The notes under the pieces: generated by a model
What the model saw: the letters and a program-made list of their open reading frames with translations, nothing else
The model's database searches: none
What the model was told of the DNA's origin: nothing
Part shown: one piece after another, positions 1 through 29,354 of the stretch
Numbering within the stretch: the first letter of the stretch is position 1
Layout of the letters: each line of letters begins with the position of its first letter
DNA from: a virus
Lineage: Duplodnaviria > Caudoviricetes
Virus record (IMG/VR): IMGVR_UViG_3300025103_000071
Location: 1 to 35,593 of that record
Length of the DNA: 35,593 nt
Strand: one strand, 5' to 3'
Made by a program: the position numbers and the translations under genes

Positions 1-69
1 ATCACCAGCGGCAGCTACTCTATGAAATACTTGAGCATTTGTACTAACTCTCATTCTTGTACTTGCCAT
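1..69 (-). CDS. N-terminus of a probable virion protein, truncated by the window edge (MASTRMRVSTNAQVFHRVAAAGD...)
   Basis: ATG at 69 on the minus strand with AGGAG at 80-76; frame open to position 1; follows the structural genes. Confidence 0.65.
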   Translation of the reverse strand, partial: MASTRMRVSTNAQVFHRVAAAGD

Positions 70-81
70 TTTATTCTCCTA

Positions 82-3000
82 TTATTGTTGTTGGGCTGCT
101 TGAGCAGCAATTGTTCTATCTATCATTTTAGAATTATTTGCAATATATGAACTTACTTCATTCACAGACCATTTATAATACTTATCTGCTTCAGCTTGGT
201 AATGCTGTGCCTGCTGAGCAGTCATAGTTGTTTTTTGAGCTTGGTTACTTATATTGGCTTGAAATTTTTGTACTTCAGCTGTGTATTTTTGGAGGTCAGT
301 AGCTCTCTCAGCCTGCCATACATCAACATCAGCTTTCAAATTAGCAGTGAACTCTTGGACTTGTGTCGCTACTTGCATTTGATAATTTTGAAGATTGTTC
401 TGATATGCTTGGGCATTATTACTATTATCCGCAATCAATGCTTGCATTTTATTTTGTGCGTTTTGCAATGCGTTTGCTTGATCTTTTTGAAGATTAGACT
501 TTTTTACATCTATATCAACTTGAAGATTTTGAATATCTGCTTGCATATCATGATTAGCTTTTGCAACAGCCTCTTGAAACTCAATCTGATATCTTGCATT
601 TTCTTTGTTAAATTCATTTAATTCATTTTGAAGATCAGTCCCAAACTTTTGAATTTCTAGTGTATTCCTTTTTTGCCATTCATCACACTCAGACGAATTG
701 CCTTGTACAACCCTAGACACTTCTGCCGTATAAGAAGAAATCTCATTTTGATAATTTTGTATTTTACGAGCTTCATTAGCATCTGCTAACTGAGCTTCTT
801 GTATCTTCTCTTGAACAACAGCTTGATAAATAGCAGAGTCTTTTTGAAAAGTATTCAAAGCATTTTGCATATCACTTTGATATTGCTGTAATACTGTTTG
901 TCTATCTTCATTCCATACTTGTAAATCGCCTTTAAGATTTGCATCATACTCTTGCACTTCTTTTTGAACTTCAGATTGATAACTTTGAAGTTCACTTTGG
1001 TATTTATTAATCTTACTTGTATTATCTGCTATAATAGCTTGCATATCGTTAGCTTTATTCTGCAATGAAAGAGCTTGATCTTTTTGCAAGTTTGATTTCT
1101 TAATATCATTTTCTGAATCAGCATTCTTCATTCTTTCTTGTGATTCAACTCTTAAATTCTCAACAGCTACTTGAAGATCATGATTAGCTTTATTAAGAGC
1201 TTCTTGAAATTCCATTTGATAACGTGCATTAGTGTTATTAAAAACATTCAATTCGCTTTGAATATCTGAACTATACGTTTTTAATAAATTATCATAATCA
1301 GTTTTATATTTTTCAAAGTTTTGAATCCACTCTTCATTAGTCCACTTCTGAACAACTGCATTTGTCTCAGATTGATACGCACTTAATTCATTTTGATACT
1401 TAGTAAGCTTAGATTGATATAATTGAACGCCTTCTTGAAAATTTTGTAATGCATTATCTGAAGCAATCTTTTGGTCTTTATCTAAATTAGCTTTTCTAGT
1501 AGTATATATATGTTGTGCTTGTTGTGTTGCTTCTTGAATGTCCTTTTGAAGATTGGCATTTTCCCTTTGAAAATCCTGCTGATACTCAACATTATTTTTA
1601 TTAAATACATTCAATTCATTTTGTATATCACTTCCGTATTTTTGTAAATCTGTTTGTCTACTTGTTTGCCAAGCTCTAGTATCTCCTTCTAAATTTTGCT
1701 GATACTCTTGAACTTTTGTACTAACTTCGGCTTGGTACGCAGACAATTCATTAGAATATTTTTGAAGTTTTTGGGCATCGTCAGATGATGATAGTTGTGC
1801 ATTTTGAATTGCTTTTTGTACTGATGCTTGGTACTCTGCATTATCTCTATTAAAAGAACTAACTGCATTTTGCATATTAGCACTAAACTCACCAATTTTA
1901 GAGTCCATCTCTCTTAATTTAACACTAGCAAGCTCTACATCTTCCTCAGTATCAACATAAGTATCAACTTGAGCATAATCAGTATTTGGAGAAGGAGGCT
2001 GAACATATGTAGGTACAGTACCAAATGCTCCAATAGAACTATCTGATAAAGATGGTGGAACAGGTACTGCAATTGTAATTGATAAATCACTTATTATAGG
2101 AGCAGACTCTAATACTATTGTTGGCTTTGTGTAACTAGGAGCACTCACACTAAGGACAGACATATCAGATATATTTACAATAGGTTCAACAATATCAGAT
2201 ATACCAGTGACATCCTCATAAGTAAAACTAGGAGACTCAGGTGCTACAGGAACGCTTGGAAGATTCAAACTACCAATAGTACCTAAAGATGGTACTGAAA
2301 ATACTGGTTTAGTATAGCTTGGAGCATGAGCACTAACATCAACAATAGAAGGAGCAGATGCAGATGTAGTTACTACGCTAGATGCACTTATATCTCCTAC
2401 TGAGGCATCGCTATGACTAACAACTGTTAATGATGGTGCCACAGGAGGCGTAATAGAAATTGTTAAATTTCCTATTGTTGGTTTAGTCCCTAAAGTTGGA
2501 GATGATGGGGGTACATAATTAGGGTTAGACCCCGAAAAATCTGCTACAACTTGAGCCGAGACACTAGGCTTGATGGGAGGGCTTGGGAAAACCCAAGAAG
2601 TAGCAGGAAAACTTGTTAATGACATAACTGGCTTTGTATATGTTGGTGCGTTTGAACTAACATCTATTATTGAAGGGGCAGTTACAGTCCCTTTAAGTAT
2701 ATCCGAAACAAAAGCATCGGAATAAGTAATTTTTTCAAGTATTGGAGAAATAGGAGCTATAATGCCTATATCCAAATCTGTTATTGTTGGGGCTGAACCC
2801 AAAGTAGGAGAGACAGGAACATCAACGTCTACCCAGTCTGTAATCTTTCCACTAGCTAATTTTGTAAACTCAAGAGAAGACACTCTATAAATAATTGCAT
2901 TCCTTAAATCAGAATCATCATCTATTTTAGAATAGTCTATGTAAAATATATATCCAGCATTGGAACCATCAGTAACGGGAGCAAAATGCACAGCCCCTTG

Positions 3001-3312
3001 TTTATGATAAAATTTAGGATATTTAGATGTTGCAAATTTTAAACTCGTTGAATCAAGTACCCAATTTGCCTCTGACATTGGAATTTCTTTACAACTATAT
3101 CCGTTTCTTTGTACATCAGTAATAGAATCATTTATTGAAAATGAAATTGCACTACCATCAGTTGAAGATGATGAAACTTTTTGTGCGAATAATAATAAAT
3201 CTTTAGGTATACTAGAAACTGCAAATTTCTGAGCATCTTCTATGCTATTAGCACTTAAAGAAGATATGCCAGTAATGTCTTTTACGCTTTGAGTGATTTC
3301 AGTTAAAGCCAT
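82..3312 (-). CDS. 1076-aa virion protein, probable head-tail connector/neck-type protein carrying a large Pro-rich plus coiled-coil insertion
   Basis: Directly downstream of the capsid gene; GGAGG RBS; five Pro-rich repeats ending P.Y.KP/P.YV.P followed by five Gln-rich helical repeats; non-repetitive N- and C-terminal ends. The connector role is inferred from position only. Confidence 0.6.
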   Translation of the reverse strand: MALTEITQSVKDITGISSLSANSIEDAQKFAVSSIPKDLLLFAQKVSSSSTDGSAISFSINDSITDVQRNGYSCKEIPMSEANWVLDSTSLKFATSKYPKFYHKQGAVHFAPVTDGSNAGYIFYIDYSKIDDDSDLRNAIIYRVSSLEFTKLASGKITDWVDVDVPVSPTLGSAPTITDLDIGIIAPISPILEKITYSDAFVSDILKGTVTAPSIIDVSSNAPTYTKPVMSLTSFPATSWVFPSPPIKPSVSAQVVADFSGSNPNYVPPSSPTLGTKPTIGNLTISITPPVAPSLTVVSHSDASVGDISASSVVTTSASAPSIVDVSAHAPSYTKPVFSVPSLGTIGSLNLPSVPVAPESPSFTYEDVTGISDIVEPIVNISDMSVLSVSAPSYTKPTIVLESAPIISDLSITIAVPVPPSLSDSSIGAFGTVPTYVQPPSPNTDYAQVDTYVDTEEDVELASVKLREMDSKIGEFSANMQNAVSSFNRDNAEYQASVQKAIQNAQLSSSDDAQKLQKYSNELSAYQAEVSTKVQEYQQNLEGDTRAWQTSRQTDLQKYGSDIQNELNVFNKNNVEYQQDFQRENANLQKDIQEATQQAQHIYTTRKANLDKDQKIASDNALQNFQEGVQLYQSKLTKYQNELSAYQSETNAVVQKWTNEEWIQNFEKYKTDYDNLLKTYSSDIQSELNVFNNTNARYQMEFQEALNKANHDLQVAVENLRVESQERMKNADSENDIKKSNLQKDQALSLQNKANDMQAIIADNTSKINKYQSELQSYQSEVQKEVQEYDANLKGDLQVWNEDRQTVLQQYQSDMQNALNTFQKDSAIYQAVVQEKIQEAQLADANEARKIQNYQNEISSYTAEVSRVVQGNSSECDEWQKRNTLEIQKFGTDLQNELNEFNKENARYQIEFQEAVAKANHDMQADIQNLQVDIDVKKSNLQKDQANALQNAQNKMQALIADNSNNAQAYQNNLQNYQMQVATQVQEFTANLKADVDVWQAERATDLQKYTAEVQKFQANISNQAQKTTMTAQQAQHYQAEADKYYKWSVNEVSSYIANNSKMIDRTIAAQAAQQQ

Positions 3313-3371: not shown

Positions 3372-4961
3372 TTACGCTACTTTCCAGACTGCGTGAGATT
3401 CGGGCATTTGCCATTCCATACCAGCTTCGGTAAGGATCATGTCAACCCGTTTATCTGTACCAGTGTTTTCCAAGGATTGAACACCAACATAGATCGAAGT
3501 GTCTCTAGAAACACCATTACCTGCGAGAGGACGGTATTTACAATGCTTCATATTGACACCAAGCATAGCAACTTGAGTTTGATCAAGAGCAATGTGACGA
3601 GCCACGTTCATGTCACCATAAACTGTAGAAATTCTCGTCATGTCAACTCCAAATTGCTTGCTTCTTCCAGTAGCTGCAAAGCCAGCACGACCATATGATT
3701 GACCGTCAGCTGCAGGTGAAGATGCACCGGGTTCTACCATGCCAATATTATTAGCAAAGTAACCTGACAATTTATGCAACCAGTTGTATACTGCTGTAGA
3801 GCAGAAGAACACAGTTGCTTTGGAGTCATTGTATCTAGGATCAACATAGTTGCTCAAATCATCAAGAAATGAATCTTGAGATTTACTAGCTACGTCAAGT
3901 TCAAATACATTACCATTGTTCAAGATGTAATCAACTGCACCTTGAGTCTGTGCTACAGAGTTAGCAGTATACTGCGAACCGAACAACAAGGACTGTTCAA
4001 TGTCCCATTTGTGCTCGATGAGTTTTTCACGCCAAATCCTTGCCCATTCATTTGGTTCATACTTAAGAACCGTTGCTCGGGCAGTATTTGTCATACCAAA
4101 CTCAGTACGCCATATCTGCGTTTGTCCATAACCAGTAGCGAAAGGCTGATCATTCCAAGTAGTTCCAAGGAGTGAAGAACCTTCTGCATAAGAAGTTCCA
4201 ACAACGTATGAACGCTGTGCTTCTAATGAACCAGCAATCTCTTGATCGTAAGTACGACCAACAGGAACATTACTTGCAAATGAACTATATTCACCTGAAG
4301 CTGCTCTAATTACTGAACCAGTAACAAGCTGAACACTGCGAGCAGATGAACTAACATTTTGCATAGCAAAAGTTTTATTCCCTGCTGCTGCGACGGCTGT
4401 CACTCTCAATAGAATGTAATCATCTGGTTTAGCACCATTTGCTCCACCACCAGCTGTGGAAGAAACAGGAATCTTTATGATTTGATTATCCATAAAGAAC
4501 TCAGGGGCTGTTCCAGAATCACCAACATCAATCTTGTCAGTTGCTTGTCCGAACTTGTTTTGGATGTTGCCACCACTTTTGTAATCACACGCCATATATA
4601 CTTTAAGTATATCGTCTAGAGCAATTGTTGCATCTGCTCCATATCCAGTGATTGTTGCATCGTCAAATACATCAGTAGTACTAGCCTTAATTTGACCAAC
4701 TACATATGCATAACGTCTATGAAAAGATGGTCTTCGTTCCGTAAACTTGAAACTTGGATCATCGGTAGGATTTTTAGCCACTTTTGATACAAATCTAAAA
4801 AAAGGTGATTGTGCAATCGCCAATTCTGATACCCTACTGCCAAAGTTATACTTTCTGCGAAGGACACCAGTATTTAGATCAGTACCTAATCGAGAGCCAG
4901 CTGCACCCAGAGCTTGATCGTTGATATCCCAATTGCTCAGGAATCTAGGGGTTGAGGCCAT
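3372..4961 (-). CDS. Major capsid protein (HK97 fold, SU10/DUF5309-like), 529 aa
   Basis: Position after portal and scaffold; motifs 'GQTQIWRTEFGMTNTARAT', 'EHKWDIEQSLLFG', 'DMILTEAGME' resemble this MCP family. Confidence 0.85.
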   Translation of the reverse strand: MASTPRFLSNWDINDQALGAAGSRLGTDLNTGVLRRKYNFGSRVSELAIAQSPFFRFVSKVAKNPTDDPSFKFTERRPSFHRRYAYVVGQIKASTTDVFDDATITGYGADATIALDDILKVYMACDYKSGGNIQNKFGQATDKIDVGDSGTAPEFFMDNQIIKIPVSSTAGGGANGAKPDDYILLRVTAVAAAGNKTFAMQNVSSSARSVQLVTGSVIRAASGEYSSFASNVPVGRTYDQEIAGSLEAQRSYVVGTSYAEGSSLLGTTWNDQPFATGYGQTQIWRTEFGMTNTARATVLKYEPNEWARIWREKLIEHKWDIEQSLLFGSQYTANSVAQTQGAVDYILNNGNVFELDVASKSQDSFLDDLSNYVDPRYNDSKATVFFCSTAVYNWLHKLSGYFANNIGMVEPGASSPAADGQSYGRAGFAATGRSKQFGVDMTRISTVYGDMNVARHIALDQTQVAMLGVNMKHCKYRPLAGNGVSRDTSIYVGVQSLENTGTDKRVDMILTEAGMEWQMPESHAVWKVA

Positions 4962-5880: not shown

Positions 5881-8106
5881 TTATTTTTTATTAGAAGGCT
5901 CTCTTGTTTTTTCTCTTGCTTGATCCTTCATTCTTTCACGAAGTAATTTTTGTTGTGCTTTAGTATCAAGTGTTTCTTTGGTTATTGCTTCTGAGCCTCT
6001 TTTAGTCTCGTCCCTTATACCAGATTGTATTAATTGCCTAGATAATGTTTCGATTGTGCCATCTCTATCTTTCAAAGCACCTTCTAAACTATCAACTTGA
6101 GATTTAAGTTGTGAGTATATTGATTTTCTCTTAAGAATATTTTCTTTTCCACGAACATCAGTTTCTGCAAGCATAGCAATGTCATCAATAAGCCCAGATT
6201 GATACCATCTAAAATATTCTTCAAGTAATGCCCATCTATTAACTGGTAAAGTTGAACCTGCAACAATTCTTACGTCAAATTTAGCTGATGCATAATCATT
6301 GAACATATTAATTGCCCTTCCAAGATCATTATATATAGGAACATTAATCTCTACTTGTCTTTCTTCTTGGATATGAGAAGGCTGGATTATTCTAAAAATT
6401 TTATGTGCTCGATAAGTACTCTGGGCAATTGATTGAAAACATTTACCAAGATGCTCCAATGAAGGTTCAACTATATCATTCATCCAAGCCTTTATTCTCC
6501 TTGTCCCATGCTCATCCTGTGCAAGTAATCCACGATATGTATCATGTTGTTGCCCTAAGTCACCTTGCATAGAACTATAAATACCAGACATATACTCCAT
6601 ATCCTGCTTCCCCTCTTGAACAGTAGAGAAAAAAGCTTGATTTATGCTCTGGGGTTGAACTGGCGTGGGAGGGGCAAATCCTTGTCTATATTTAAGCAAT
6701 GCACCGGGAGCAGAAGAATATTGTTCCCACTCATCTTCAGGAACAGAACCCTCTTCATAAATCCATCTTAGGTTAGAAGCCAAGTTTGCATTGTGAATCA
6801 TTAATTGATGAGCTTTATTTATCTCTTGCTGTTTACCTATAAGTGGCAGTACAGCTGACATTGGGTATGGAGTACCTGTCCACATATACGGAATAGGCAC
6901 TATTGGGTAATCAGCCATTGGCATATATGTTTCATAAAGCATAACTTCAGAACCAAGACTTACACTTACCTTAATTCGTGAATCATAAAAAGGCACAGCT
7001 TCTACAATAGTAGATGCAAACAAATCATTCTTAATTAATTCTTTATATTCTTGTTCATTTACAACTTGGTTTTCAATTTTAGTTGATTCTTCTTTTAACC
7101 TCGCCATTAATGATGTTTGTGCCTGCTCTAGTTGGTCTTCTAATTCTTTCTGTGCTTTCTCTTTTTCAATTTGACCTCTCTCTGGGATCATTTCGCCCTG
7201 CTCTACAAGCTCATCAATTTGAAGCATTTTTTCTTTTAACTGAACTTGTAATTCATTTTTAAGTTGAAGTAATTGTTCATTAACCTGCTCTTGAAGTTCC
7301 TCTAATCCTTGAGAATCTGGAGGCAATTGAATAAAAAGGTTATAAAGTTTGTACTTTTCTTTAGTATAGAATTCATAACAATCTACTACTTCATCTTCTT
7401 CTGATGTTAATGGATCGTATGCTTCTCCACCAATATCATCTGGCTGTATACTATCAGAATTGAAAGATTCTCTTTGTGAATAAAACTGACCTCCTTGGTT
7501 AGCAGAGCCATCAGCAGCATTAATTTTTTTCTTAAATTGTGGAAATAAACTAATAAGCTGAGTTTTGGGGAGGTCTTTTTTAATAATTATATAACTTGCA
7601 TCTCTAAAAAGAAAATCTCTGCTCATAGGGTCTACCCATACGTCATGAGGATCAATTCTTTTAAATACAACTTCTCCCATACCCTTATCCATATCAGGGT
7701 CTATATCAACTTGTAAGAAACCAACTCCTTTTATAAGAGCATCTTGGATAACATGAGAATATAAAGAGTTACCATTCGATAGATACCAGCAATAATCTGC
7801 AATATCAGAATGAACAGCAGCAACATCAGTATCGCTACCTTCTGCCCCCACAGCTTGCCATCTAGGATTTTTAGCCGTAGCGAAATATTTCATCATTTCT
7901 ATGACGGGCGTTATCCTGTTAATAGTAAAAGTAGGCATACCAGATTGCTCTAGCATACGTTCTTCATTTTTTGTTAGCTGGTCGTTGTGATAAAAATCAC
8001 TACACTTTTGTGAAGATGATTGCCACTTTCTCCTATAGGCGTTATCTGCCCTTTGGAAAAGTTGGTATATAACTTCCGCTCTTTGCTTATTACTTTTTCT
8101 TGGCAT
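5881..8106 (-). CDS. Portal protein (P22/SU10-like), 741 aa
   Basis: 'FYHNDQ...PTFTINRITP', 'DALIKGVGFLQV', 'QQEINK', C-terminal helical tail; position between terminase and scaffold. Confidence 0.88.
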   Translation of the reverse strand: MPRKSNKQRAEVIYQLFQRADNAYRRKWQSSSQKCSDFYHNDQLTKNEERMLEQSGMPTFTINRITPVIEMMKYFATAKNPRWQAVGAEGSDTDVAAVHSDIADYCWYLSNGNSLYSHVIQDALIKGVGFLQVDIDPDMDKGMGEVVFKRIDPHDVWVDPMSRDFLFRDASYIIIKKDLPKTQLISLFPQFKKKINAADGSANQGGQFYSQRESFNSDSIQPDDIGGEAYDPLTSEEDEVVDCYEFYTKEKYKLYNLFIQLPPDSQGLEELQEQVNEQLLQLKNELQVQLKEKMLQIDELVEQGEMIPERGQIEKEKAQKELEDQLEQAQTSLMARLKEESTKIENQVVNEQEYKELIKNDLFASTIVEAVPFYDSRIKVSVSLGSEVMLYETYMPMADYPIVPIPYMWTGTPYPMSAVLPLIGKQQEINKAHQLMIHNANLASNLRWIYEEGSVPEDEWEQYSSAPGALLKYRQGFAPPTPVQPQSINQAFFSTVQEGKQDMEYMSGIYSSMQGDLGQQHDTYRGLLAQDEHGTRRIKAWMNDIVEPSLEHLGKCFQSIAQSTYRAHKIFRIIQPSHIQEERQVEINVPIYNDLGRAINMFNDYASAKFDVRIVAGSTLPVNRWALLEEYFRWYQSGLIDDIAMLAETDVRGKENILKRKSIYSQLKSQVDSLEGALKDRDGTIETLSRQLIQSGIRDETKRGSEAITKETLDTKAQQKLLRERMKDQAREKTREPSNKK

Positions 8107-8879: not shown

Positions 8880-10436
8880 TTATGCGACTACCCAGCTTTT
8901 TGGTTGTTTTTTTGGCTTAAACCACGACTTTTTGTCCTTTTCCTGTTTAAAATTGGGTGGAAAAGTGTGTCTACATGCATAATACAATGCCTCTATAGTA
9001 TCATCGTGAGCCATTCGTGGGCCAAATGTAAGTATTTCATTAATTAAATCAAACATGTTATCTCTGACAAATATACTTCCCATACTGAACCTACCGCTAA
9101 GACCACTGTATATCCTATTCCTCTTCTGAGTCCCCCCAGGTTTTTCAGGTATTACAGCAATATCATAACGATTTAATCTCTTTCTTTCTTCATTAAGTGC
9201 TTGGAAGATAGACCTGTTCATAGCAACGTCTTCAACTGTAGCTGATACACAATGATATTTATTATAAAGTTCTATTATATAATCTACTACTCCAAGTTTT
9301 GAACCAGTATCGTATTTACTTCCAATAGTAGGGATAGACCTGTGTCTTTCATACTCAATAACATAAGCATTGTTGTTTATATCAACAGCTATTACCATCA
9401 TCACAGAATAATCAGCACCCTTAGTATCTATATCCGTAGCAGGGTCGCATCCTATAAAAGTATTTACTGGTGTTTTTGAACCATCAATAGATATATAGTT
9501 TATCCCCTCTTCATATTCAATATATCCTTCATACTTTTTAATATCACTTGACTTCCAAAGAGAATCTTCTTCACTCTGGACTTGCATAAAATATTCTTGG
9601 TAATACTTGGATGGCTGACCTGAATCATAATAGAATTTCTTCTTTTGCTCCATGATCTTTTTTGTAAAAAAACTTTCCCATAATAAATTACCATTATCAT
9701 CTAATGCTTTATATGTAACAATTTCCCATGCAAAATCTTTCTTATCCTTTATTGCTCGCTCATTAGATATAAGCAAATTATTAATAAAAGAATCATAATG
9801 AACTGGTGTTCCATTAACACGAATTCTACCAGTTTCCGGCTCAAGCGCAGGGTATACAACCGCAGTAACAAGATTCGCATTTTTAGCTCTAGCATCAGGA
9901 GTAATAGTATTTCCTTCATGTTCAAAATCATCCAGTATAATCAAGTCATATCTTTTATGAAGTTTTGCACCTCCCCTGATACCAGTAACATTACTCTTCG
10001 ATATTAGTTTACAGCCATTACTTAATTCTATATCTTCTTCTGTCCATTTCCTACCTTTTAAATGCCCAAAGAAGTATTTTATCTGCTCATTATAGTCTAA
10101 GTGATACTTAATATAATCCATATTCCCCGTAGCTAACTTCTGAGTGGCAGATACCCAGCCATAGAAAAGCATATCAGAAGGGTCACAAAATACAAAATCT
10201 TTTAAAATTGATGCTTTTGTAAGAATAGTTTTACCATGACCCCTTGGCAAAATAAAAGCAGATTGCTTTACACTCAAGTCATCAATGACATCAGCCACTT
10301 CATAATGAAACGCAGGAGTCTCAGACCTTAAAAAGTCATCTGGTAGAAAAAGCTTCCCAAATGCTATAAGGTCATTATGGGCTAATAATAGAGCTTCCTC
10401 TTCCTTGCTTACGTTCTTCTTGTTTATGTTTGCCAA
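8880..10436 (-). CDS. terL: Terminase large subunit
   Basis: Walker A 'PRGHGKT', Walker B 'LIILDD', motif III 'GTP', nuclease 'IGCDPA' and 'HDDTIEA'. Confidence 0.95.
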   Translation of the reverse strand: MANINKKNVSKEEEALLLAHNDLIAFGKLFLPDDFLRSETPAFHYEVADVIDDLSVKQSAFILPRGHGKTILTKASILKDFVFCDPSDMLFYGWVSATQKLATGNMDYIKYHLDYNEQIKYFFGHLKGRKWTEEDIELSNGCKLISKSNVTGIRGGAKLHKRYDLIILDDFEHEGNTITPDARAKNANLVTAVVYPALEPETGRIRVNGTPVHYDSFINNLLISNERAIKDKKDFAWEIVTYKALDDNGNLLWESFFTKKIMEQKKKFYYDSGQPSKYYQEYFMQVQSEEDSLWKSSDIKKYEGYIEYEEGINYISIDGSKTPVNTFIGCDPATDIDTKGADYSVMMVIAVDINNNAYVIEYERHRSIPTIGSKYDTGSKLGVVDYIIELYNKYHCVSATVEDVAMNRSIFQALNEERKRLNRYDIAVIPEKPGGTQKRNRIYSGLSGRFSMGSIFVRDNMFDLINEILTFGPRMAHDDTIEALYYACRHTFPPNFKQEKDKKSWFKPKKQPKSWVVA

Positions 10437-10602: not shown

Positions 10603-10700
10603 ATAAATCCGTGCCTTTCAGGATACTTCATAACTTTAGGGTATTGTTTAGATATACCATTTTTGTCAGGTATCCTGTGTTCTATTTTTGTTTTTTTCAT
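10563..10700 (-). CDS. 45-aa hypothetical protein (MKKTKIEHRIPDKNG...)
   Basis: Hand-translated; ATGA overlap with the phosphoesterase stop. Confidence 0.45.
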   Translation of the reverse strand: MKKTKIEHRIPDKNGISKQYPKVMKYPERHGFIWESSETPLPSTI

Positions 10701-11722
10701 TTTTTTGACCTTTTCCATGTTAAATAATCCGCCCCCTCGTACGGGTCAAATATTGTTGTAATTAATCTAGGGTCACTATCTTCATATTGTGGATCAATAA
10801 TAGTGACTGGACACATGAAAATACATTTATCATCTAGCCCCAGCTCTTTTGCATATCTATCATTTGTTTTATAACTGCCAACTTGAACAGCATGACTAAT
10901 TAATCCTGTCATTGGGTCTTTTAAAACTTGATAACCAGATACATGGATATGACCAGCAGTAAGTATATGATCTCTCCAGCCCATTTGGATAGCCTTGCTA
11001 ATCCCATGAGCAGTGTTCCACATACTATGTCCTCTGAAATTATGGCGTGCATTTAGTCTAACTTCTTTACCATTGGGAAAAATAAGATTCATTCTAACTT
11101 TATGATTACTATAATTGGTCATGCCCCTTCCAATCATCCACTCTAGTGGGTCACCTACGCCACTCCAAGCATCATGGTTGCCACCAACTAAATAAAGCCA
11201 AGGAACCATCTTTACAAAATGCTCTGTCAGTCTCCAAGATTCTTTTGCAGATGTACCCTGTTCTCCATAAAGCCTTGATAATCTGCCTACCCAATTATTC
11301 TGCATATCCCCAACATTTCCACCATACAATCCTTCTGTCTTAGAAACCAATTGTCCATGCATCAAAAGTTTAGAAATATCTGTGCCATCATCGTCTATAT
11401 GATTATCTCCAAAATGTGCAATACCAATGGGTTTATCGTCTAGTATTCTTATATCTATTAAGTGTTCAGCTTTTTCTCGCCTATTCTTAGCGTGGAATTG
11501 CTTAACACGGTGCTTGATTAAATCTTCAACATCAATATCTTCAGGAGGGAGTTCAGCTCTAACAAAAGCATATGTTTCTCTAATCCTCTGTTTCCATTTG
11601 CGAATTGTTCTTTTATGAACATTATATATCTTAGCTAATTCAGTAGGACTATTAGTTTCCATATCCGCAATAAATTCTGGAGGGATATGGTCTATATTTA
11701 TAGGGTTATTATTCTGTGGCAT
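10697..11722 (-). CDS. Calcineurin-like metallophosphoesterase with N-terminal HTH
   Basis: Five family motifs: GDNH, GD, GNHD, H, GHIH; N-terminal 'PTELAKIYNVHKRTIRKW' HTH. Confidence 0.85.
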   Translation of the reverse strand: MPQNNNPINIDHIPPEFIADMETNSPTELAKIYNVHKRTIRKWKQRIRETYAFVRAELPPEDIDVEDLIKHRVKQFHAKNRREKAEHLIDIRILDDKPIGIAHFGDNHIDDDGTDISKLLMHGQLVSKTEGLYGGNVGDMQNNWVGRLSRLYGEQGTSAKESWRLTEHFVKMVPWLYLVGGNHDAWSGVGDPLEWMIGRGMTNYSNHKVRMNLIFPNGKEVRLNARHNFRGHSMWNTAHGISKAIQMGWRDHILTAGHIHVSGYQVLKDPMTGLISHAVQVGSYKTNDRYAKELGLDDKCIFMCPVTIIDPQYEDSDPRLITTIFDPYEGADYLTWKRSKK

Positions 11723-12846: not shown

Positions 12847-13052
12847 TTCTTTACTCCCTTCTTTAATCGTTTATCTTTTACTAATTGGCATTGAACACAC
12901 AAGCCATTAGGGTAAATAAAAAACTTTTCTACAGACTTCCCACAGTTATAACAACCACTGTAAGACGATGTACTGTCTGGATTATCTTTATTGTCTTTTG
13001 TATTATTCAATTTGCCCATCCTCCCAGCCCTTGAAGGTAAGCACAAAGTCAA
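12834..13052 (-). CDS. Small Zn-finger-like protein
   Basis: CYNC...CVQC; start uncertain. Confidence 0.5.
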   Translation of the reverse strand: MTLCLPSRAGRMGKLNNTKDNKDNPDSTSSYSGCYNCGKSVEKFFIYPNGLCVQCQLVKDKRLKKGVKKWHI

Positions 13053-13212
13053 GTAATATCCAAATACTAAATGACCATGTTATTTGTAAGAAAAATTGAA
13101 GTAAAATGATGTGGGTATATACTTAACTCTGAAAGGGAAAAATCGGTTTATTGGAATCGCTTTTTACGTTAGTCGGTTTTTCGATTCCTTCACTTACAAT
13201 AACGGAGTTCAT

Positions 13213-13500
13213 ATGAAAACTATCCTTGAAACGCTTACACAGTACAGGGACATTTTAACTAACATCAATGGGAACCTTGTTCGGGTTAACTTTGACATCT
13301 CGCTTGATGTATTCACACTTGACGGTGTAGACTATCATCTCATCGTTTGGTACAAGAGAGATTGGGACAATGAAGGGGCTCTTTATGAGTCCAAGCGTTT
13401 GTTCACCACAGCTTCCTCAATTGATGCACGTTGGGACTTTCACGAGTCTATCAATGCTCAAGAAGATGACATGTATGATGCCATGTATCCAAGTGCATGA
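13213..13500 (+). CDS. Hypothetical acidic protein, first gene of the plus-strand block
   Basis: Track ORF 13111-13500; ATG at 13213 has GGAG upstream; followed by a strong hairpin. Confidence 0.65.
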   Translation: MKTILETLTQYRDILTNINGNLVRVNFDISLDVFTLDGVDYHLIVWYKRDWDNEGALYESKRLFTTASSIDARWDFHESINAQEDDMYDAMYPSA

Positions 13501-13516
13501 TCATGTAGGTTAGAAT

Positions 13517-13553
13517 GCAACAGCCCCCCTTCGGGGGGCTTGTTGTTGTTATT
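13517..13553 (+). terminator. Intrinsic terminator
   Basis: AGCCCCCC-TTC-GGGGGGCT hairpin (can form a C-UUCG-G loop) followed by TGTTGTTGTTATT. Confidence 0.8.
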
Positions 13554-13670
13554 CGTTATAAGGCTTCGTATAAGTGCAACGTTGGGACGTATAGATACAT
13601 ACTATCACATACACACACATATATCGTACATATTCAACTAACGTGGTCAGTAACATGAAAGATTTAGATT

Positions 13671-13745
13671 TAGCAAGAGATACGGGTTAAAGCCCATCGT
13701 AATTTAGGTTTCCCTGCAGGTTTCCGTTCCCTGTGTCTCTTACTA
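13671..13745 (+). ncRNA. Putative structured RNA element E1
   Basis: TAGCAAGAGATACGGG pairs with CCTGTGTCTCTTACTA: 16 positions, 1 mismatch, 2 G-U. Confidence 0.6.
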
Positions 13746-13754
13746 TAGTACCAA

Positions 13755-13872
13755 GGATGAAGTTAATATGTCATAAGGTATGGTGGTGCATACTTCCCAG
13801 ACATATTACCACGACGGGTGGCTTCCGTTCAGATAATGAAGAGATAAGCGTAAGGGGCTCTTCACTTCATCC
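13755..13872 (+). ncRNA. Putative structured RNA element E2 (multibranch)
   Basis: Closing GGATGAAGT/ACTTCATCC; inner TAATATGTC/GACATATTA, AGGTATG/CATACTT, ACGG/CCGT, TGAAGAG/CTCTTCA. Confidence 0.7.
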
Positions 13873-13895
13873 ATAATTTAAATGGAGAGTATAAC

Positions 13896-14021
13896 ATGAA
13901 TGCATTCAAGCATTACATAGTAGAAGTTATTATAACAATAATCAAGTTAATCAAGGGATATGGTTTAGAATCATTTGACTGTATCACTTACAAACAGTAC
14001 ATGGAGAATAAAGATGATTAA
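13896..14021 (+). CDS. 41-aa hypothetical protein (MNAFKHYIVEVII...)
   Basis: Hand-translated; GGAGAG RBS; stop overlaps next start region. Confidence 0.55.
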   Translation: MNAFKHYIVEVIITIIKLIKGYGLESFDCITYKQYMENKDD

Positions 14022-22070: not shown

Positions 22071-22898
22071 ATGGATTCAGTCAACTGGAAAGATTGTCCA
22101 GTTATATTGCCTTATTGGGGAGGTAAAGTTCAACTTTCTAGACAGTTAGTTGGAATGATACCTCCCCACAATAGATATATAGAAGTATTTGCAGGTGGAC
22201 TTTCAATGTTTTTCAGAAAAAAGAAATGCAAACATAATGTTATTAATGATAAAGACAATGATATAGTAAACTTATATGAATCAGTTAGAACAGATTTTGA
22301 AGAATTCTCACATCACTTTAAATATTTAATCAAAAGTCGTGAATTGTTTAATAGATTTAAGGCAGTAGTAAAAAGTGATAAAAATATTAACATACCTAAT
22401 CCTAAAAGAGCAGCTGAATACTATTATATAATTAAATGTGCATTCAATAATAATTTTCATAACCCAATAAGTAAAGACCAAGAATGGAATAGTAAATTTT
22501 TAAAAGACATAGATTACTCAAAACAATACTTTGATAATGTAATGATAGAGAATTTTGACTTCAGGGAATTATTAAAGAGATACCCACCAAAACCAGATGA
22601 CTTCTGGTATCTTGACCCACCTTATATAGCAGCAACAGAACGTAAAGATTATTATTTCTTTACTTTTAATCAACAAGATCATAAGGATATGTTAGGAATA
22701 CTAAGGGCTATTGATGAAAAAGGTGGTAAATTTATGGTTTCCTATGACGATAGAAATGAAATAGAATCTCTATTAAAAGAGTTTGAAATATCAAAAGTAC
22801 AGACAAAATATGGCGGTAGACATTTTGATCCAAGTAAAGTATACAATGAATTAGTAATTACAAATTATAAACCACAAAAACAAGAAACCCTATTTTAA
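22071..22898 (+). CDS. Dam-like (D12 class) N6-adenine DNA methyltransferase
   Basis: 'YWGGK', 'EVFAGG', 'IND', 'YLDPPY'. Confidence 0.92.
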   Translation: MDSVNWKDCPVILPYWGGKVQLSRQLVGMIPPHNRYIEVFAGGLSMFFRKKKCKHNVINDKDNDIVNLYESVRTDFEEFSHHFKYLIKSRELFNRFKAVVKSDKNINIPNPKRAAEYYYIIKCAFNNNFHNPISKDQEWNSKFLKDIDYSKQYFDNVMIENFDFRELLKRYPPKPDDFWYLDPPYIAATERKDYYFFTFNQQDHKDMLGILRAIDEKGGKFMVSYDDRNEIESLLKEFEISKVQTKYGGRHFDPSKVYNELVITNYKPQKQETLF

Positions 22899-24663: not shown

Positions 24664-25175
24664 TGTCAAGTATATCCAGAATATATGTGGGTATTGACCC
24701 AGGTGCTAGTGGTGGTATTGCAGCTATAGCACACGATAAGAAAGATAAAGTCTATTTAAAAGGAATATGGGCATGGAAAGACCCCAATACAGCTTCAGAG
24801 ATAATGCATTCTTTTGGTACACAAGATAATGGTAACGTATGGGTACAGGCATTAATAGAGAATGTACACGCTTTCCCTTCAGATGGGAGAAGTAGTGCAT
24901 TCAAATTTGGAATGAATCTTGGAATGTGGAAAGGTCTACTGGCAGCGTATAACATTAGTTATACAAGCATGATTCCACAGCAATGGATGAAACAATATGG
25001 TACAGTTAAAAAAGAGAAAAAAGAGCGTAAAAATCAATTAAAGGATTGGGCTTACATAATAGGAAAAAAGCTCGATTACGATGGCAAAATAACGCTTAAA
25101 ACAGCAGATGCTTTGTTGATAGCGAATTGCCTTTCCAATAACTACCTAGACGAAGGAGAGCAAAAATGGCTCTAG
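24663..25175 (+). CDS. RuvC-like Holliday junction resolvase
   Basis: 'GIDPG..GGIA', 'IENV', 'SAFKFG', 'ADALLIA'. Confidence 0.88.
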   Translation: MSSISRIYVGIDPGASGGIAAIAHDKKDKVYLKGIWAWKDPNTASEIMHSFGTQDNGNVWVQALIENVHAFPSDGRSSAFKFGMNLGMWKGLLAAYNISYTSMIPQQWMKQYGTVKKEKKERKNQLKDWAYIIGKKLDYDGKITLKTADALLIANCLSNNYLDEGEQKWL

Positions 25176-25387
25176 ACATGAACAATGCAAATTTCCTTGA
25201 AATAAAAGGAAAATGGAAATATGGAAATGAATACATTGGAACTGATTTAACTGAAATTGATGGAGTTAATTATCTTAAAGTAATATTATATCCATTTGAA
25301 ATAACTCTTATATCATCATTTAAAAATATTGGCTTTGGCTTAAAAATATTTAAAGTAAACTTTTCATTTAACATATCCGCATTATAA
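25166..25387 (+). CDS. Hypothetical protein
   Basis: AAGGAG RBS. Confidence 0.6.
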   Translation: MALDMNNANFLEIKGKWKYGNEYIGTDLTEIDGVNYLKVILYPFEITLISSFKNIGFGLKIFKVNFSFNISAL

Positions 25388-25515
25388 TGTTAGATAGGTT
25401 TGATATTAAGTATCTAAGAGAAGAACTGGAAAAATTAAAAACTATACATCGAAGTATTAAAAGTATAGTTGAAACAATAGAAAGAATAATTAGCAGAGCT
25501 GGAAAGAAATATTAA
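25387..25515 (+). CDS. 42-aa hypothetical protein (MLDRFDIKYLREELEKL...)
   Basis: Hand-translated; TAATG coupling; stop shares TTAA with the convergent gene. Confidence 0.5.
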   Translation: MLDRFDIKYLREELEKLKTIHRSIKSIVETIERIISRAGKKY

Positions 25516-28500
25516 TCTGTAAAATTAGTGATGGAATCATATGCATCTCTAAATAGTGAACCGAAGAGGACTGGGAGGAACATGAACATTAATCTGTTCC
25601 CCCAGTCATCTCTTGCTTTTTCTTCATCTTCTTCACTAAATCCCATACCCAGCATAACAGCCCATACTACCATTCTTGCAGCTAATGCAAATACTGGATT
25701 TTCTGCGCTTCTTATGATTTTAGTTGCACCACTTGACCTTCCAATTATTTTCCACATAATAGGAGCTATTGAAGACATTACCCCAAATGTACTAGCGACA
25801 CCTCTTGACATTAAAAGACGTACAAATGCTTTAGCTTCTATATCAGTAGAATTTTCTCCAAGTGCTGTAAAAATCCTTACAAATGCATCTTTAGTATCGT
25901 AACTACTATCCATAAAGTTTGCTGCTATATTTCTATCGTGTATCATTTGGAAAAGAGTATATGATTTATATTGCATAACAGTCCTACCCATTCCTGAAAA
26001 AGCTTCACCCAACCAAACAGGAGACATCCCAAACATCATTTGATAAACTGCATCTCTAGCAACTTTTTTTGCTATTGGAGACTTGTACATACTATCATTG
26101 TAATCCCCCGTAGTAACCTTCCCAAGTAACCCCAGACTTTGAGCATGAAAAATAGCCATTAAGGCAGTTTCTGATCTCATTTGTTGCTCACCCTCAGTAA
26201 ATGTAAACAAATCTTTATTTCCTTCAGTAAACCACCATGATAATTTCCAAGTTACCATTTTTTTAAATTTATGATCTGATATTTCCCCAACAAGCCTTCT
26301 CATTCTTTTTTCTACTAAATCTCTTTTATTATTTGCTTCCTCAATAGTTAAAAGCCCCCAATAAGCATCTCTTTTATCAAGTAATTCCGTTTTTAGTTCA
26401 TCACTTAAATTGTCTGCATTGAATTCAGCACTCCATTTCTGATGTGTATCAAGTCTTTTTAATGTTTCTGTAAGTTCTCGTAAATAACTTATTTCAGCTT
26501 TTTTAAGTTTACTTTTTTCTCTAAATAACATATTTAATAAAAGATGATCAATGCTAGATTCACCATTCTTTAAAAAATTATCTTTACCTCTTCTTATAAG
26601 TGAAAACCAGTTTCTCATATTTTGACTTGGGATAGGAATAGCAGCACCACCAATCCATTTTGATACCCTATCAGAAAATGGATATAAACCAAAATCATGT
26701 CCATCTAGGTGCTCACCACTCCCAAGCATAATTTCATTAAACATACTAATCAAATTCAATACACCAGTTGCATCTACAACACTTTTCCATTTTGCTTGAG
26801 AAGTTTCAGTACCTCCATTTAATGCATTTCCAGCTTTTTTCCAAATATCAAGCCCATAATGTATGATTGGATTAAGTATCTGAGTTCTATTCCCCATAGC
26901 CCCACCCATACCTAAGAACCTACCAGAGAACAATCCGTTTATTATTAGCATCAGCTTTTCTGCACTAGCTTCATCAAATTCCCTACCAGCCCTTAAAGAT
27001 TTTGGAAACCAAGTATTCATCCATGCTGCTACTTCCTCTTGGCTAACATCCTGCCACCCTCTAAGTGTAGGTACTTTATTTATTGTATCAATATGCCCCA
27101 ATGCTAGTTTAACTCTATTTACCATGTAGTCTGTAATATCAGTAGGCATCATACTTTCAGTTTTTGATAGAGTATACATTGTTGAAACCATTTGATTAAC
27201 TAATGAATTCCTATGAAGATTTCTAAATGTTTTCTCAAGATATTCAGCATGAACATTACCATCTTTACGCCTATTAAGATTACTAGTCCATAATGATCTA
27301 TGTTCTGTATGCACAGTTGATGCTGCATCTCTTATATCTCTGCTCTGTTCACCAATGCCTCTAGAAACAAGCATTTCTAATATTTTATTAATACCATCTC
27401 TAGCAGGTTCTAATCTTTTTCTAGCCCAAGGATGTAAATCACCAGCTAATTTTTTATTTATATTTTCAACTGCATCATCCATCATATTCTCTAGTGCCTG
27501 CCTTGTAAACATGACCGGCCCATAGTTTACACCTATCTTCTGAAAATACGAATCTGATGTTGAAAGACCATATTTACCCTCATAGACAGCAGATTCAATT
27601 CCACCAAGCTTAAGTATATTATCATCTATCCAATCGGCTATTTCTCCTGCTGTATATTGTTTTTTTGTTTCAGGGTTAATCTTTCTTTTCATTTCGTTAG
27701 ATATTGTTTTTCTTAATCTAACAGAGGTTTTATCATTAGCTTTCCCAAATTTTCTTACATCTTCATATAAATCTCTATATTGTTCTCTATATTCTGCAAC
27801 TAAATCCCATAAAGTAATCCCACCTGTTCCTGCAATTGTTTTAGTTAATACAGCATCACTTGGTTGATTTTCTAAATATTGGAAAGCTCCATATGCTTTA
27901 TGTGGTTGAAATTTAATATCATTTTTTGAATTCTTTATTTTTTCTTTTATGTAATATTGTTTTGTTTCTCGACCATACTTCACTTCACCCTTACCTTGTA
28001 AATAAGAATAACTATGCTCTTTTTGAGCTTTATAAAATCCTTCTTTTAAAATATGTATATCTATATTATCTGCCTGATGAGCTACATTTTCCCATTCAGA
28101 AGTTGCATCTTTTTTCGACCTTAGTGCATAAACCTTATATGTCTCAGCCCCATTCCTAGGAGTTTCTTGCTTAACCATTAAATATTCAACTAATCCATCA
28201 GGAGAAAGTTGTATTTCAGGGTCAGCTGACTTAAATTCTGCAACAGAAAGGTCAGGAGTCTCATACTTCCCCTGCATATCAATATTCTCATTTTGAAATT
28301 CTGGAGGAGCATCTGGGTCTTTTTTATTTAAAAAGTCAGTTCTTGCCTTTCTTCTTTCGAGAGCATATGTTATGATTCTATTATCTCTTTGGCTTGTATT
28401 CTCGGTAGTTGTCGGTATAAAATATCTTGTTTGACCATGAACAATATCATTAGTAAACTCATCTCTGTATTTTTCCATTACTAAACTTTCATATAATACA

Positions 28501-29354
28501 TCATCAAATTTTTGATATTTATCACTATTGAAAATCTTTCTTCCAATATTAGAAAAGAAATTTGTTTTACCAGCATACCCTAATTTAGATTCAGGTATTG
28601 TCTTTTCTATATTTCTACCATCATCATCTTTTTGATTATCATAAGAAACACGATATTTCGTAGTCCCTTTAGTAGTTTTTATCCTTTTAAGTATAGTAAC
28701 ATTTTCTCCATCAGAATCAAATAAACCAGATATTCCATCAATGGGATTATCCAAATCTACCTGCCCACTACCAACAAGCTCCGTAAAATTTCCTTCAAAT
28801 CCCTCCTTTTGAATTTTCATTCTTTCAATATAGCTTTGGTAAGACTGAACAGTTTTATCAGTTATAGCCTGCGCTGCATCAATTAGTTTTGAAACAGTAC
28901 CAAACCTATCAGCTTTCATCATCAAAAGACCTGGAGGCATCAATGCTCTTTCCCAATTCTTCATTCTCTGGTCAGGTCTAGCCATTATTTCATCAGATTT
29001 CTTTCTAATCTTTTCAAATCTCTTATTCATACCATGTAAAGTTCTACTTGGTAATGTATCATTGCCCCTATAAATAGGATTTAGATTAAGTCTGCTAAAA
29101 TATGTAGCCCATTTACCAACCATATCCCAAGGGTCAGCTTCATAAGCAGTAGCACCACCCCACTTAAGAAAGTAATTTTTCATATTATCGTACAGAATTT
29201 TATGCATTTTATAATTACTAGCCTTCTTATTAGGTACACCTATCATATTAGATAATGCATCATTTATATTAAGTTCATAAGCTATTTGTAAAGCATTAAA
29301 ACTTTCTTCCATTTTATTCTTTACTGATACACAAGCTTTAAGTGATTTTGCCAT
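25512..29354 (-). CDS. 1280-aa probable internal virion/ejection protein
   Basis: Large, mostly helical; 'MQYKSY' and hydrophobic segments near the C-terminus; TAATG-coupled to the RNAP gene. Function inferred from context. Confidence 0.6.
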   Translation of the reverse strand: MAKSLKACVSVKNKMEESFNALQIAYELNINDALSNMIGVPNKKASNYKMHKILYDNMKNYFLKWGGATAYEADPWDMVGKWATYFSRLNLNPIYRGNDTLPSRTLHGMNKRFEKIRKKSDEIMARPDQRMKNWERALMPPGLLMMKADRFGTVSKLIDAAQAITDKTVQSYQSYIERMKIQKEGFEGNFTELVGSGQVDLDNPIDGISGLFDSDGENVTILKRIKTTKGTTKYRVSYDNQKDDDGRNIEKTIPESKLGYAGKTNFFSNIGRKIFNSDKYQKFDDVLYESLVMEKYRDEFTNDIVHGQTRYFIPTTTENTSQRDNRIITYALERRKARTDFLNKKDPDAPPEFQNENIDMQGKYETPDLSVAEFKSADPEIQLSPDGLVEYLMVKQETPRNGAETYKVYALRSKKDATSEWENVAHQADNIDIHILKEGFYKAQKEHSYSYLQGKGEVKYGRETKQYYIKEKIKNSKNDIKFQPHKAYGAFQYLENQPSDAVLTKTIAGTGGITLWDLVAEYREQYRDLYEDVRKFGKANDKTSVRLRKTISNEMKRKINPETKKQYTAGEIADWIDDNILKLGGIESAVYEGKYGLSTSDSYFQKIGVNYGPVMFTRQALENMMDDAVENINKKLAGDLHPWARKRLEPARDGINKILEMLVSRGIGEQSRDIRDAASTVHTEHRSLWTSNLNRRKDGNVHAEYLEKTFRNLHRNSLVNQMVSTMYTLSKTESMMPTDITDYMVNRVKLALGHIDTINKVPTLRGWQDVSQEEVAAWMNTWFPKSLRAGREFDEASAEKLMLIINGLFSGRFLGMGGAMGNRTQILNPIIHYGLDIWKKAGNALNGGTETSQAKWKSVVDATGVLNLISMFNEIMLGSGEHLDGHDFGLYPFSDRVSKWIGGAAIPIPSQNMRNWFSLIRRGKDNFLKNGESSIDHLLLNMLFREKSKLKKAEISYLRELTETLKRLDTHQKWSAEFNADNLSDELKTELLDKRDAYWGLLTIEEANNKRDLVEKRMRRLVGEISDHKFKKMVTWKLSWWFTEGNKDLFTFTEGEQQMRSETALMAIFHAQSLGLLGKVTTGDYNDSMYKSPIAKKVARDAVYQMMFGMSPVWLGEAFSGMGRTVMQYKSYTLFQMIHDRNIAANFMDSSYDTKDAFVRIFTALGENSTDIEAKAFVRLLMSRGVASTFGVMSSIAPIMWKIIGRSSGATKIIRSAENPVFALAARMVVWAVMLGMGFSEEDEEKARDDWGNRLMFMFLPVLFGSLFRDAYDSITNFTD

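Follow-up and report, generated by a model that had tools for sequence, protein, structure and literature searches.

A mirror-paired hairpin of extended chain and alpha helix in a predicted adaptor-like phage protein, and its possible role as a tail tube

The virus record IMGVR_UViG_3300025103_000071 (Duplodnaviria; Caudoviricetes), analysed here over a stretch of 35,593 nucleotides (the window), encodes directly downstream of its major capsid gene a 1076-residue protein in which a proline-rich outbound arm (the Pro arm) and a helical return arm are built of repeats in mirror order. We conclude with high confidence that these arms form a mirror-paired hairpin of extended chain and alpha helix. 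The reading that we favour, with more reserve, is that the protein is an adaptor carrying the hairpin as an insertion and that twelve hairpins close into a double-walled tail tube of about 80 nm; that a tube of some kind is formed, counting a segmented form too, is likely. We lean, albeit slightly, towards the full account, in which tubes grown from the adaptor, with twelve straight helices inside and twelve polyproline II (PPII)-like chains outside, extend to about 130 nm with neither tube subunits nor a tape measure and are retuned through the exchange of mirror-paired modules at two sites far apart in the same gene.

The repeats had been described in a first-pass annotation at positions 292-2814, which correspond to amino acids (aa) 167-1007 of the protein, and its five Pro units and five helix units were found in place (Table 1). 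Their mirror pairing at about 1:2 was borne out by profile anchors, motifs derived from these sequences (P-x-Y-x-x-P in the first arm, L-N-x-F-N-x-x-N-x-x-Y-Q in the second), which fall 22, 64, 125, 192 and 233 residues before the turn at Asp458 and 29, 112, 233, 364 and 443 residues after it. Outward from the turn the spacings are 42/83, 61/121, 67/131 and 41/79, with ratios of 1.93-1.98, and the fifth pair (62/120), which is without an outer anchor, is based on internal homology. Self-alignment of the protein gave mirrored offsets too (103/199, 108/210, 169/331 and 171/335), a 5-residue indel in the Pro arm therefore lying opposite an 11-residue indel in the helix. The Pro arm contains 14% Pro, 18% Ser and 22% Val plus Ile, while between aa 460 and 1060 Pro is absent and only 7 Gly occur. 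The turn motif was present exactly once in 120 of the 121 proteins of the first homolog set, the acidic turn was invariant across a 45-row alignment, and the tip was modelled as helix-turn-helix both in the homolog P0132 and in aa 328-700 of the window protein.

Two homolog searches yielded 240 homologs (the best 120 of 142 and the best 120 of 158 matches), and all three landmarks were located in 219 of the 241 proteins (236-1411 aa), the remainder being 21 short matches, many of them partial, that are without one landmark, and P0100, which is without the turn. Arm lengths in these 219 proteins correlated with r 0.97 and a slope of 1.72, and independent contrasts on a tree built from the N-domain alone (218 rows, P0094 excluded) gave r 0.94 and a slope of 1.58, with the same sign in 145 of 158. 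The co-variation of the arms that the first-pass annotation had proposed as a test was thereby observed, and in most homologs units have not been gained or lost in one arm independently of the other. The richer the outbound arm was in Pro, the steeper was the slope (0.74, 1.33, 1.75, 1.79 and 1.81), and regression over 155 distinct rows (R2 0.966) assigned 1.87 ± 0.03 helix residues to each extended residue, 1.00 ± 0.09 to each helical outbound residue and minus 15 to each acidic elbow. As an antiparallel hairpin predicts 1:1 for helical outbound segments, the value of 1.00 represents a built-in control. The family ranges from about 200 to 1631 aa; members of 200-236 aa have just a short helical hairpin, yet the tip is present, and the longest member (L082:4286-9181, 1631 aa) has arms of 555 and 886 residues and a calculated length of about 130 nm. 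In P0142-P0151, P0156, P0183 and P0092 the outbound arm is all-helical or mixed helix and Pro, with the same tip, giving alpha/alpha and hybrid versions.

Matching was also evident module by module. Anchor counts in the two arms were within one of each other in 205 of the 219 proteins and equal in 139, the latter being used for the module tests. Across 45 distinct architectures with at least three anchors (132 module pairs), the within-protein correlation of module lengths was 0.87 in mirrored and -0.41 in parallel order, the maximum in 5000 permutations being 0.59. Sequence types agreed in 146 of 156 typed pairs (183 pairs in all), and in multi-module proteins in 112 of 120 mirrored as compared to 55 of 114 parallel comparisons (permutation maximum 88), these counts and those for the elbow below being in-sample, as module types and elbow motif were defined by eye after inspection of the data. 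The highest module ratio in the 132 pairs was 2.05, near the value of 2.07 given by rises per residue of 3.1 Å for PPII and 1.5 Å for alpha helix. Low ratios arise because elbows loop out of register, looped-out elbows being found in 44 of 64 low-ratio pairs and in none of 68 high-ratio pairs. The elbow, a recurrent acidic/aromatic stretch of 8-12 residues ending in D-x-D-P, occurs in the Pro arms of many homologs, and many members have an acidic loop of 25-35 residues beside the tip; both might serve on the outer wall to bind a metal or a partner.

Strict matching is weakened by a number of departures. Arm lengths in 22 of the 155 rows were off by more than 40 residues, and the slope between sister pairs was just 1.42, with a median ratio of 1.54 (39 of 68 pairs changed). 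P0021 is short of 42 residues in the Pro arm alone relative to P0020, the helix of P0002 is about 110 residues shorter than that of P0001, and P0032 is short of 120 residues in the helix alone, matching P0017 in the length of its Pro arm and P0059 in that of its helix, the proteins compared being near-identical. The equality of anchor counts in only 139 proteins and the in-sample nature of the type and elbow counts belong here as well. The mismatched members could be assembly errors or chimeric assemblies, tolerated mismatches, or recombination intermediates.

The outbound arm had been taken to be pure PPII, and this part of the first-pass annotation was not upheld: across 113 Pro arms PxxP occurs at 1.99 times and PxP at 0.30 times the expected frequency, and despite this the Pro content is just that given above and the hydrophobic period peaks at 2.55, not 3. 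The arm is coil in both models, and "extended, PPII-rich" is the safer wording. A beta-strand arm was rejected, as no strands are predicted, PxP is depleted and the ratio ceiling is 2.05, with stretches of alternating Ile and Val being less clear-cut. The parallel that had been drawn with streptococcal antigen I/II holds as an analogy of alpha/PPII pairing and fails as homology, since the match to Pfam Strep_SA_rep, with similar Tyr spacing, is sub-threshold (18.4 bits versus a cut-off of 26, E 0.0023) and the chain order is reversed, antigen I/II running from helix through globular tip to Pro arm. The antigen I/II A3-P1 fibre was not among the listed matches of the tip model in Foldseek (none at E <= 0.001) or in the VIA top 50, an absence that excludes nothing as the model searched appears folded back. 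In what follows, published systems are described from PMC3707005, PMC11445570, PMC10172136, PMC9509320, bioRxiv 10.1101/2025.06.11.659172, PMC9710869, PMC9728967, PMC9022992 and PMC13730344. The antigen I/II stalk is that of a monomeric cell-wall adhesin, in which an alpha helix is paired with a PPII chain via Pro-aromatic contacts, at 155 Å per repeat, and the hairpin protein is likened to it by analogy, not by membership.

The domain that carries the hairpin was assigned by predicted fold (Foldseek, VIA) to a neck protein, as had been proposed from the sequence. An AlphaFold2 model of the 338-aa homolog P0132 (90 rows; predicted local distance difference test, pLDDT, 88; predicted template modelling score, pTM, 0.78) runs through helices, a beta-sandwich, helix 3, an ordered coil arm (155-194, pLDDT 66-88), a tip helix and, as far as the C-terminus, a single long helix (208-336, with a break at 257). 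This prediction contains the helix bundle, beta-sandwich and closing C-terminal helix that characterize adaptors, in the order H-H-beta-H plus last helix. Ranks 1-12 of its Foldseek search were all podophage portal-tail chains of about 200-230 aa (best E 6.9e-4) from the entries GP4, KHP30, Pa223, VP1, crAss001, SU10 and A4, which were taken as adaptors from entry titles and lengths, and T7 gp11 and KP32 tail tubular protein A, which are named explicitly, appeared lower down. With VIA, adaptors aligned over 157-182 residues, from model residue 1 to 329-338, at Z 8.0-8.8 and a root-mean-square deviation of 3.7-5.1, and among the matches only adaptor chains aligned from the first residue through the last helix. 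In the Atlas neighbour cluster, SU10_adaptor was present on 10% of members. From the models, membership of the T7/SU10 adaptor fold family is probable for the hairpin protein, and the hairpin would be an insertion just before the helix leading to the portal. In Sf6 and DEV the C-terminal arm of the adaptor inserts into the portal, and a hairpin extending the N-terminal end of the last helix would therefore point away from the capsid.

Modelling of oligomers and the faces of the helix both bear on a closed tube. Three copies of P0132 scored 0.56 as compared to 0.01 for the best of three controls. Among solved pairs 20 of 30 attain the mark, as compared to 1 of 23 single chains, although these counts are only roughly applicable and the pass may represent memory of solved adaptor rings. 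The pLDDT was 71 or above, and contact agreement across the runs was at least 57%. The two other copies lie against opposite faces of one copy, the open-arc pattern of a ring, with long helices side by side in register (contacts 264-317, about 35 residues into the insert) and residues 156-164 of the Pro arm contacting the neighbour. Besides the aromatic stripe, which is the anchor by construction, a helix wheel over 1107 family windows resolved an aliphatic stripe, a sector of Gln/Asn/Ser, a stripe rich in Ala and an acidic sector; the two packing faces lie 154 degrees apart, where a 12-ring expects 150, and the Gln/Asn/Ser sector between them contains D/E and K/R at 2-6% each. Read from sequence, this pattern agrees with a barrel that has Gln lining its lumen and the Pro chain lying along the aromatic stripe outside. 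The stripe period of 3.62-3.64, not 3.5, indicates nearly straight helices, and an ordinary heptad coiled coil of the helix with itself was rejected (power 0.45 at period 3.5 versus 1.50 at 3.6). Twelve-fold symmetry, for its part, would follow from the adaptor family.

The antiparallel hairpin of about 80 nm with both termini in one virion-bound domain, as first proposed, is thus supported by arm and module co-variation, whereas the separate fibres of that proposal are not favoured, because adaptor topology, the three-copy model and the helix faces point to a closed tube. Twelve copies standing free of each other past the ring, in the form of thin whiskers or of a loose skirt surrounding a short tail, and serving as spacers or sensors as the antigen I/II stalk does, would fit all co-variation results equally well; the alpha/PPII pair of antigen I/II is on its own a stable 155-Å fibre, the weak Strep_SA_rep match has similar Tyr spacing, and distal helix contacts are not named confident in the three-copy model. 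We nevertheless consider whiskers unlikely, if the most serious of the alternatives, as, in addition to its aromatic stripe, the helix has aliphatic and Ala/small stripes separated by a charge-free Gln sector, which is hard to explain for a solvent-exposed single rod, the predicted neighbour contacts reach into the insert, and the tip is a small conserved acidic turn without an adhesin domain, kept even in the shortest members.

Several results count against the adaptor and the tube. Generic helical bundles tie with adaptors in VIA (Z 8.5-8.9), no SU10_adaptor match was obtained for the window protein, and the minimal member P0353 reached 22 bits (residues 2-181) versus a cut-off of 27. The complex was modelled on the short homolog P0132, not on the window protein, its pass is open to the memory effect noted above, and helix 208-263 and the tip are absent from its confident contacts. 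The wheel controls (P22 portal barrel and N4 gp54) are weak and too short to decide, the P22 barrel, at 17% Gln, being without a clear Gln sector, and the lumen face of the hairpin is neutral where the A1002 lumen is described as negative. The tube itself is a prediction. The monomer model of window aa 328-700 (pLDDT 76, pTM 0.56) has a break in the helix at about aa 608-611 and finds its best VIA matches in three-helix bundles, which suggests fold-back. In the structure predictions of the kind advised in the first-pass annotation, long helices are thus packed as an arc in the P0132 trimer, and in the window monomer the helix appears folded back.

That break, the bundle-like matches and the break at 257 in the P0132 model would agree with a segmented tube, or one extending only upon infection, in which the helix is folded back at module joints in the virion and straightened into a channel at ejection; the SU10 tail is known to extend on attachment. 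This we regard as improbable, since permanent fold-back would consume extra helix residues and the break-containing module has a ratio (61/121, 1.98) like that of unbroken modules, none exceeding 2.05, while the absence of Pro and scarcity of Gly in aa 460-1060 also argue against it. Least credible of all is that the arms are not paired within the chain and that the 1:2 relation stems from pairing with the arm of a neighbouring subunit or from a ruler shared via another protein. In a tube the Pro chain could sit in the groove between two helices, and the neighbour contacts of residues 156-164 are in line with this; however, the P0132 monomer orders its arm at the pLDDT given above without neighbours, a shared ruler is at odds with module-type matching, which demands direct contact, and with both termini in one domain and a short tip the chain must turn back on itself.

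For the closed tube that we favour, the following assembly may be envisaged. Twelve subunits would assemble into a ring beneath the portal, either immediately next to it or with the split ring described further on in between, and their hairpins would zip into a tube with the helices as inner wall around a Gln/Asn-lined lumen and the Pro chains outside on a Tyr/Trp/Phe stripe. The twelve acidic tips could form the seat on which the next part, a second ring or nozzle, docks, and DNA and ejection proteins would pass through the tube. Its length would be set by the hairpin, without a tape-measure protein; about 560 insert helix residues at 0.15 nm per residue give about 84 nm for the window phage, somewhat less if supercoiled. 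Length would change via paired gain or loss of modules of 40-67/79-131 aa, probably by two out-of-register crossovers, one per arm, with the mismatched members as possible intermediates. A long tube might serve to traverse a capsule or to store cargo, as has been proposed for crAss001.

Gene order in relatives was examined at 24 loci, where the usual arrangement is capsid, an optional small gene, the hairpin gene, a gene of 118-205 aa, a split second adaptor-like ring and a fibre gene. The capsid gene lies upstream of the hairpin gene, directly or across one or two small genes, in 23 of the 24, the remaining locus starting inside the gene. The second ring is split into two genes of about 96 and 231 aa, mostly with a 4-base overlap (L078:11896-12186 plus the next gene; L004:10118-11062), and in L004 both halves match SU10_adaptor weakly; joining of the halves by stop read-through was rejected, as just 1 of the 27 distinct junctions listed is in frame for it. 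At its end the second half has a conserved extended arm, which could be a portal-binding arm. The beta-rich 118-205-aa gene directly downstream of the hairpin gene (e.g. L082:9184-9678) was found in 30 of 31 loci with a Pro arm and in 0 of 11 without, counts that represent only two independent pairs or events, with homologs sitting elsewhere in two of the "absent" loci; as a lead, it is a candidate tube-decorating protein. Farther on lie a hub/muzzle-like gene, for which the Atlas neighbours Phage_stabilise and crAss_MUZ at 0.91 provide a lead, and large probable ejection proteins. A tape-measure or sheath match was absent from five of five genomes 92-100% complete, which lends weak support to a tube without a tape measure, as such proteins diverge. 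A relation between hairpin length and fibre gene length was not supported (rho 0.43, p 0.11, 15 loci).

The window is a 35.6-kb virus record, 63% complete, and the stretch is present in marine metagenome runs. Its minus strand carries, in order, terminase, P22-like portal, a probable scaffold gene, SU10-type major capsid gene and the hairpin gene (Table 1), the contig ending 81 bases past the latter. No PHROG family was found for the hairpin protein. A search for cultured relatives or a host gave no tblastn match among 50,697 phage records, no match in GTDB genomes and no match under E 0.1 in PDB sequences, and the family is so far known from uncultured viruses only. An assembly artefact was ruled out: a contig from another study (run X7) spans window positions 60-2932 with 34 substitutions and zero gaps, and the repeats are only 56-72% identical in DNA (six best-aligned of eight tested pairs); in this check short joints with 20-37-letter sides at 90% likeness were taken as other organisms or repeats. 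Elsewhere in the window, two very large probable ejection proteins are encoded at 29354-35593 (minus strand, 2029+ aa, ART-PolyVal and cpYpsA domains) and 25512-29354 (minus strand, 1280 aa, no family), and relatives encode similar giants. A D12-class adenine methyltransferase gene (22071-22898, plus strand) adjoins genes for a DUF932 protein and a DnaB helicase, and a helix-turn-helix and phosphoesterase-like gene (10697-11722, minus strand, phrog_7339) lies between the terminase subunits, where relatives have genes of similar size. The sign of the GC skew flips with gene orientation at 13000-14000 and 25000-26000.

Table 1. Positions in the window of the hairpin gene, its predicted parts and neighbouring genes.
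Feature	Position	Strand	Basis or remark
Hairpin gene, 1076 aa	82..3312	-	Predicted adaptor body with long hairpin insertion; directly downstream of major capsid gene
aa 1-152: two helices, beta-sandwich, helix 3; predicted podophage adaptor/ring body	2857..3312	-	P0132 model, Foldseek, VIA; family member P0353 SU10_adaptor match below cut-off
Pro arm unit 1, aa 167-228, 62 aa; mirror partner helix unit 5	2629..2814	-	
Pro arm unit 2, aa 229-269, 41 aa, Trp type; mirror partner helix unit 4	2506..2628	-	
Pro arm unit 3, aa 270-336, 67 aa; mirror partner helix unit 3	2305..2505	-	
Pro arm unit 4, aa 337-397, 61 aa; mirror partner helix unit 2	2122..2304	-	
Pro arm unit 5, aa 398-440, 43 aa; mirror partner helix unit 1	1993..2121	-	
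Tip, aa 441-473: short helix and acidic turn E457-D458-x-E460	1894..1992	-	Putative docking site for next tail part
Helix unit 1, aa 474-556, 83 aa	1645..1893	-	
Helix unit 2, aa 557-677, 121 aa; predicted break near aa 608-611	1282..1644	-	
Helix unit 3, aa 678-808, 131 aa	889..1281	-	
Helix unit 4, aa 809-887, 79 aa	652..888	-	
Helix unit 5, aa 888-1007, 120 aa	292..651	-	
aa 1008-1076: long helix end running into predicted last helix of adaptor (Trp1048)	82..291	-	Helix unbroken up to the C-terminus in homolog model; adaptor alignments reach model residue 331-338
Major capsid protein	3372..4961	-	SU10_MCP E 4.7e-18
Portal protein, P22-like	5881..8106	-	P22_portal E 7.8e-51
Terminase large subunit	8880..10436	-	phrog_38 E 1e-69

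In long-tailed phages tail length is set by a tape-measure protein. If the tube is real, tail length would be about 0.15 nm times the length of the helix arm, mirror-paired modules would bind and non-partners would not, and one adaptor gene spanning about 5-130 nm, as long as a siphovirus tail, would blur the divide between podoviruses and siphoviruses. It would then constitute a fourth route to a long podophage tail, a 2026 paper giving three (beta-barrel stem, separate helical tube and stacked rings, with the A1002 tube a variant) and the reported lengths of elongated podophage tails being 15-33 nm. No description of an adaptor with a Pro/helix hairpin was found in the literature searched, which contains few subscription papers; going by it, no earlier alpha/PPII architecture in a virion would be on record, and the tube would represent a modular protein nanotube of natural origin whose pairing code can be read. 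Even as whiskers the hairpins would represent an alpha/PPII-like fibre outside the streptococcal adhesins. The family is a rare case of repeat evolution revealing fold and register directly, the 1:1 control being supplied by the family itself, and a length-programmable 12-helix nanotube would be useful for protein design.

Among known systems, the podophage adaptors and ring proteins (T7 gp11, SU10 gp11, Pa223 gp63, GP4 and crAss001 R1-R5) share the predicted fold of N-domain and last helix and are likewise encoded after the capsid gene, with a second adaptor-like ring and a hub-like gene nearby. Solved adaptors are dodecamers of subunits of about 180-250 aa, whereas the hairpin family has an insert of up to about 1400 aa in one subunit; crassviruses and Pa223 achieve longer tails via stacked rings. 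The N4/DEV tail tube (gp54/gp75) is a twelve-helix tube, 63 Å in outer and 36 Å in inner diameter and 330 Å long, and the stripe period of N4 gp54 is 3.62, as in the hairpin helix, but this tube is encoded by a separate gene, is described as single-layered and is not an adaptor insert. The A1002 gp37 tail tube has twelve hairpin-like chains, an inner helical channel and an irregular extended outer wall, a likeness taken from the description alone, and differs in being a separate 318-aa protein below the nozzle, 24 nm long, with a proximal turn, an outer wall of helices and loops, and no repeats in its description (PMC13730344). In the lower collar of phi29, P68 and Andhra (Andhra gp16), the collar protein, a dodecamer, carries an inserted hairpin from which the DNA tube is built and whose tip bears a hook, and 28 extra residues in Andhra as compared to P68 add 40 Å of tube. 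The phi29-type stem is a 1:1 beta/beta hairpin of 128 aa and 15 nm on an all-helical collar, while the hairpin family is extended/alpha at 1:2, modular and calculated at 5 to about 130 nm; the 24-stranded beta-hairpin barrel is not found in it, given a helix as return arm and an insert predicted to be free of strands. By analogy, the hairpin protein may work like the Andhra/phi29 stem, with an insert that sets tube length, rather than being a member of the phi29 collar or antigen I/II families.

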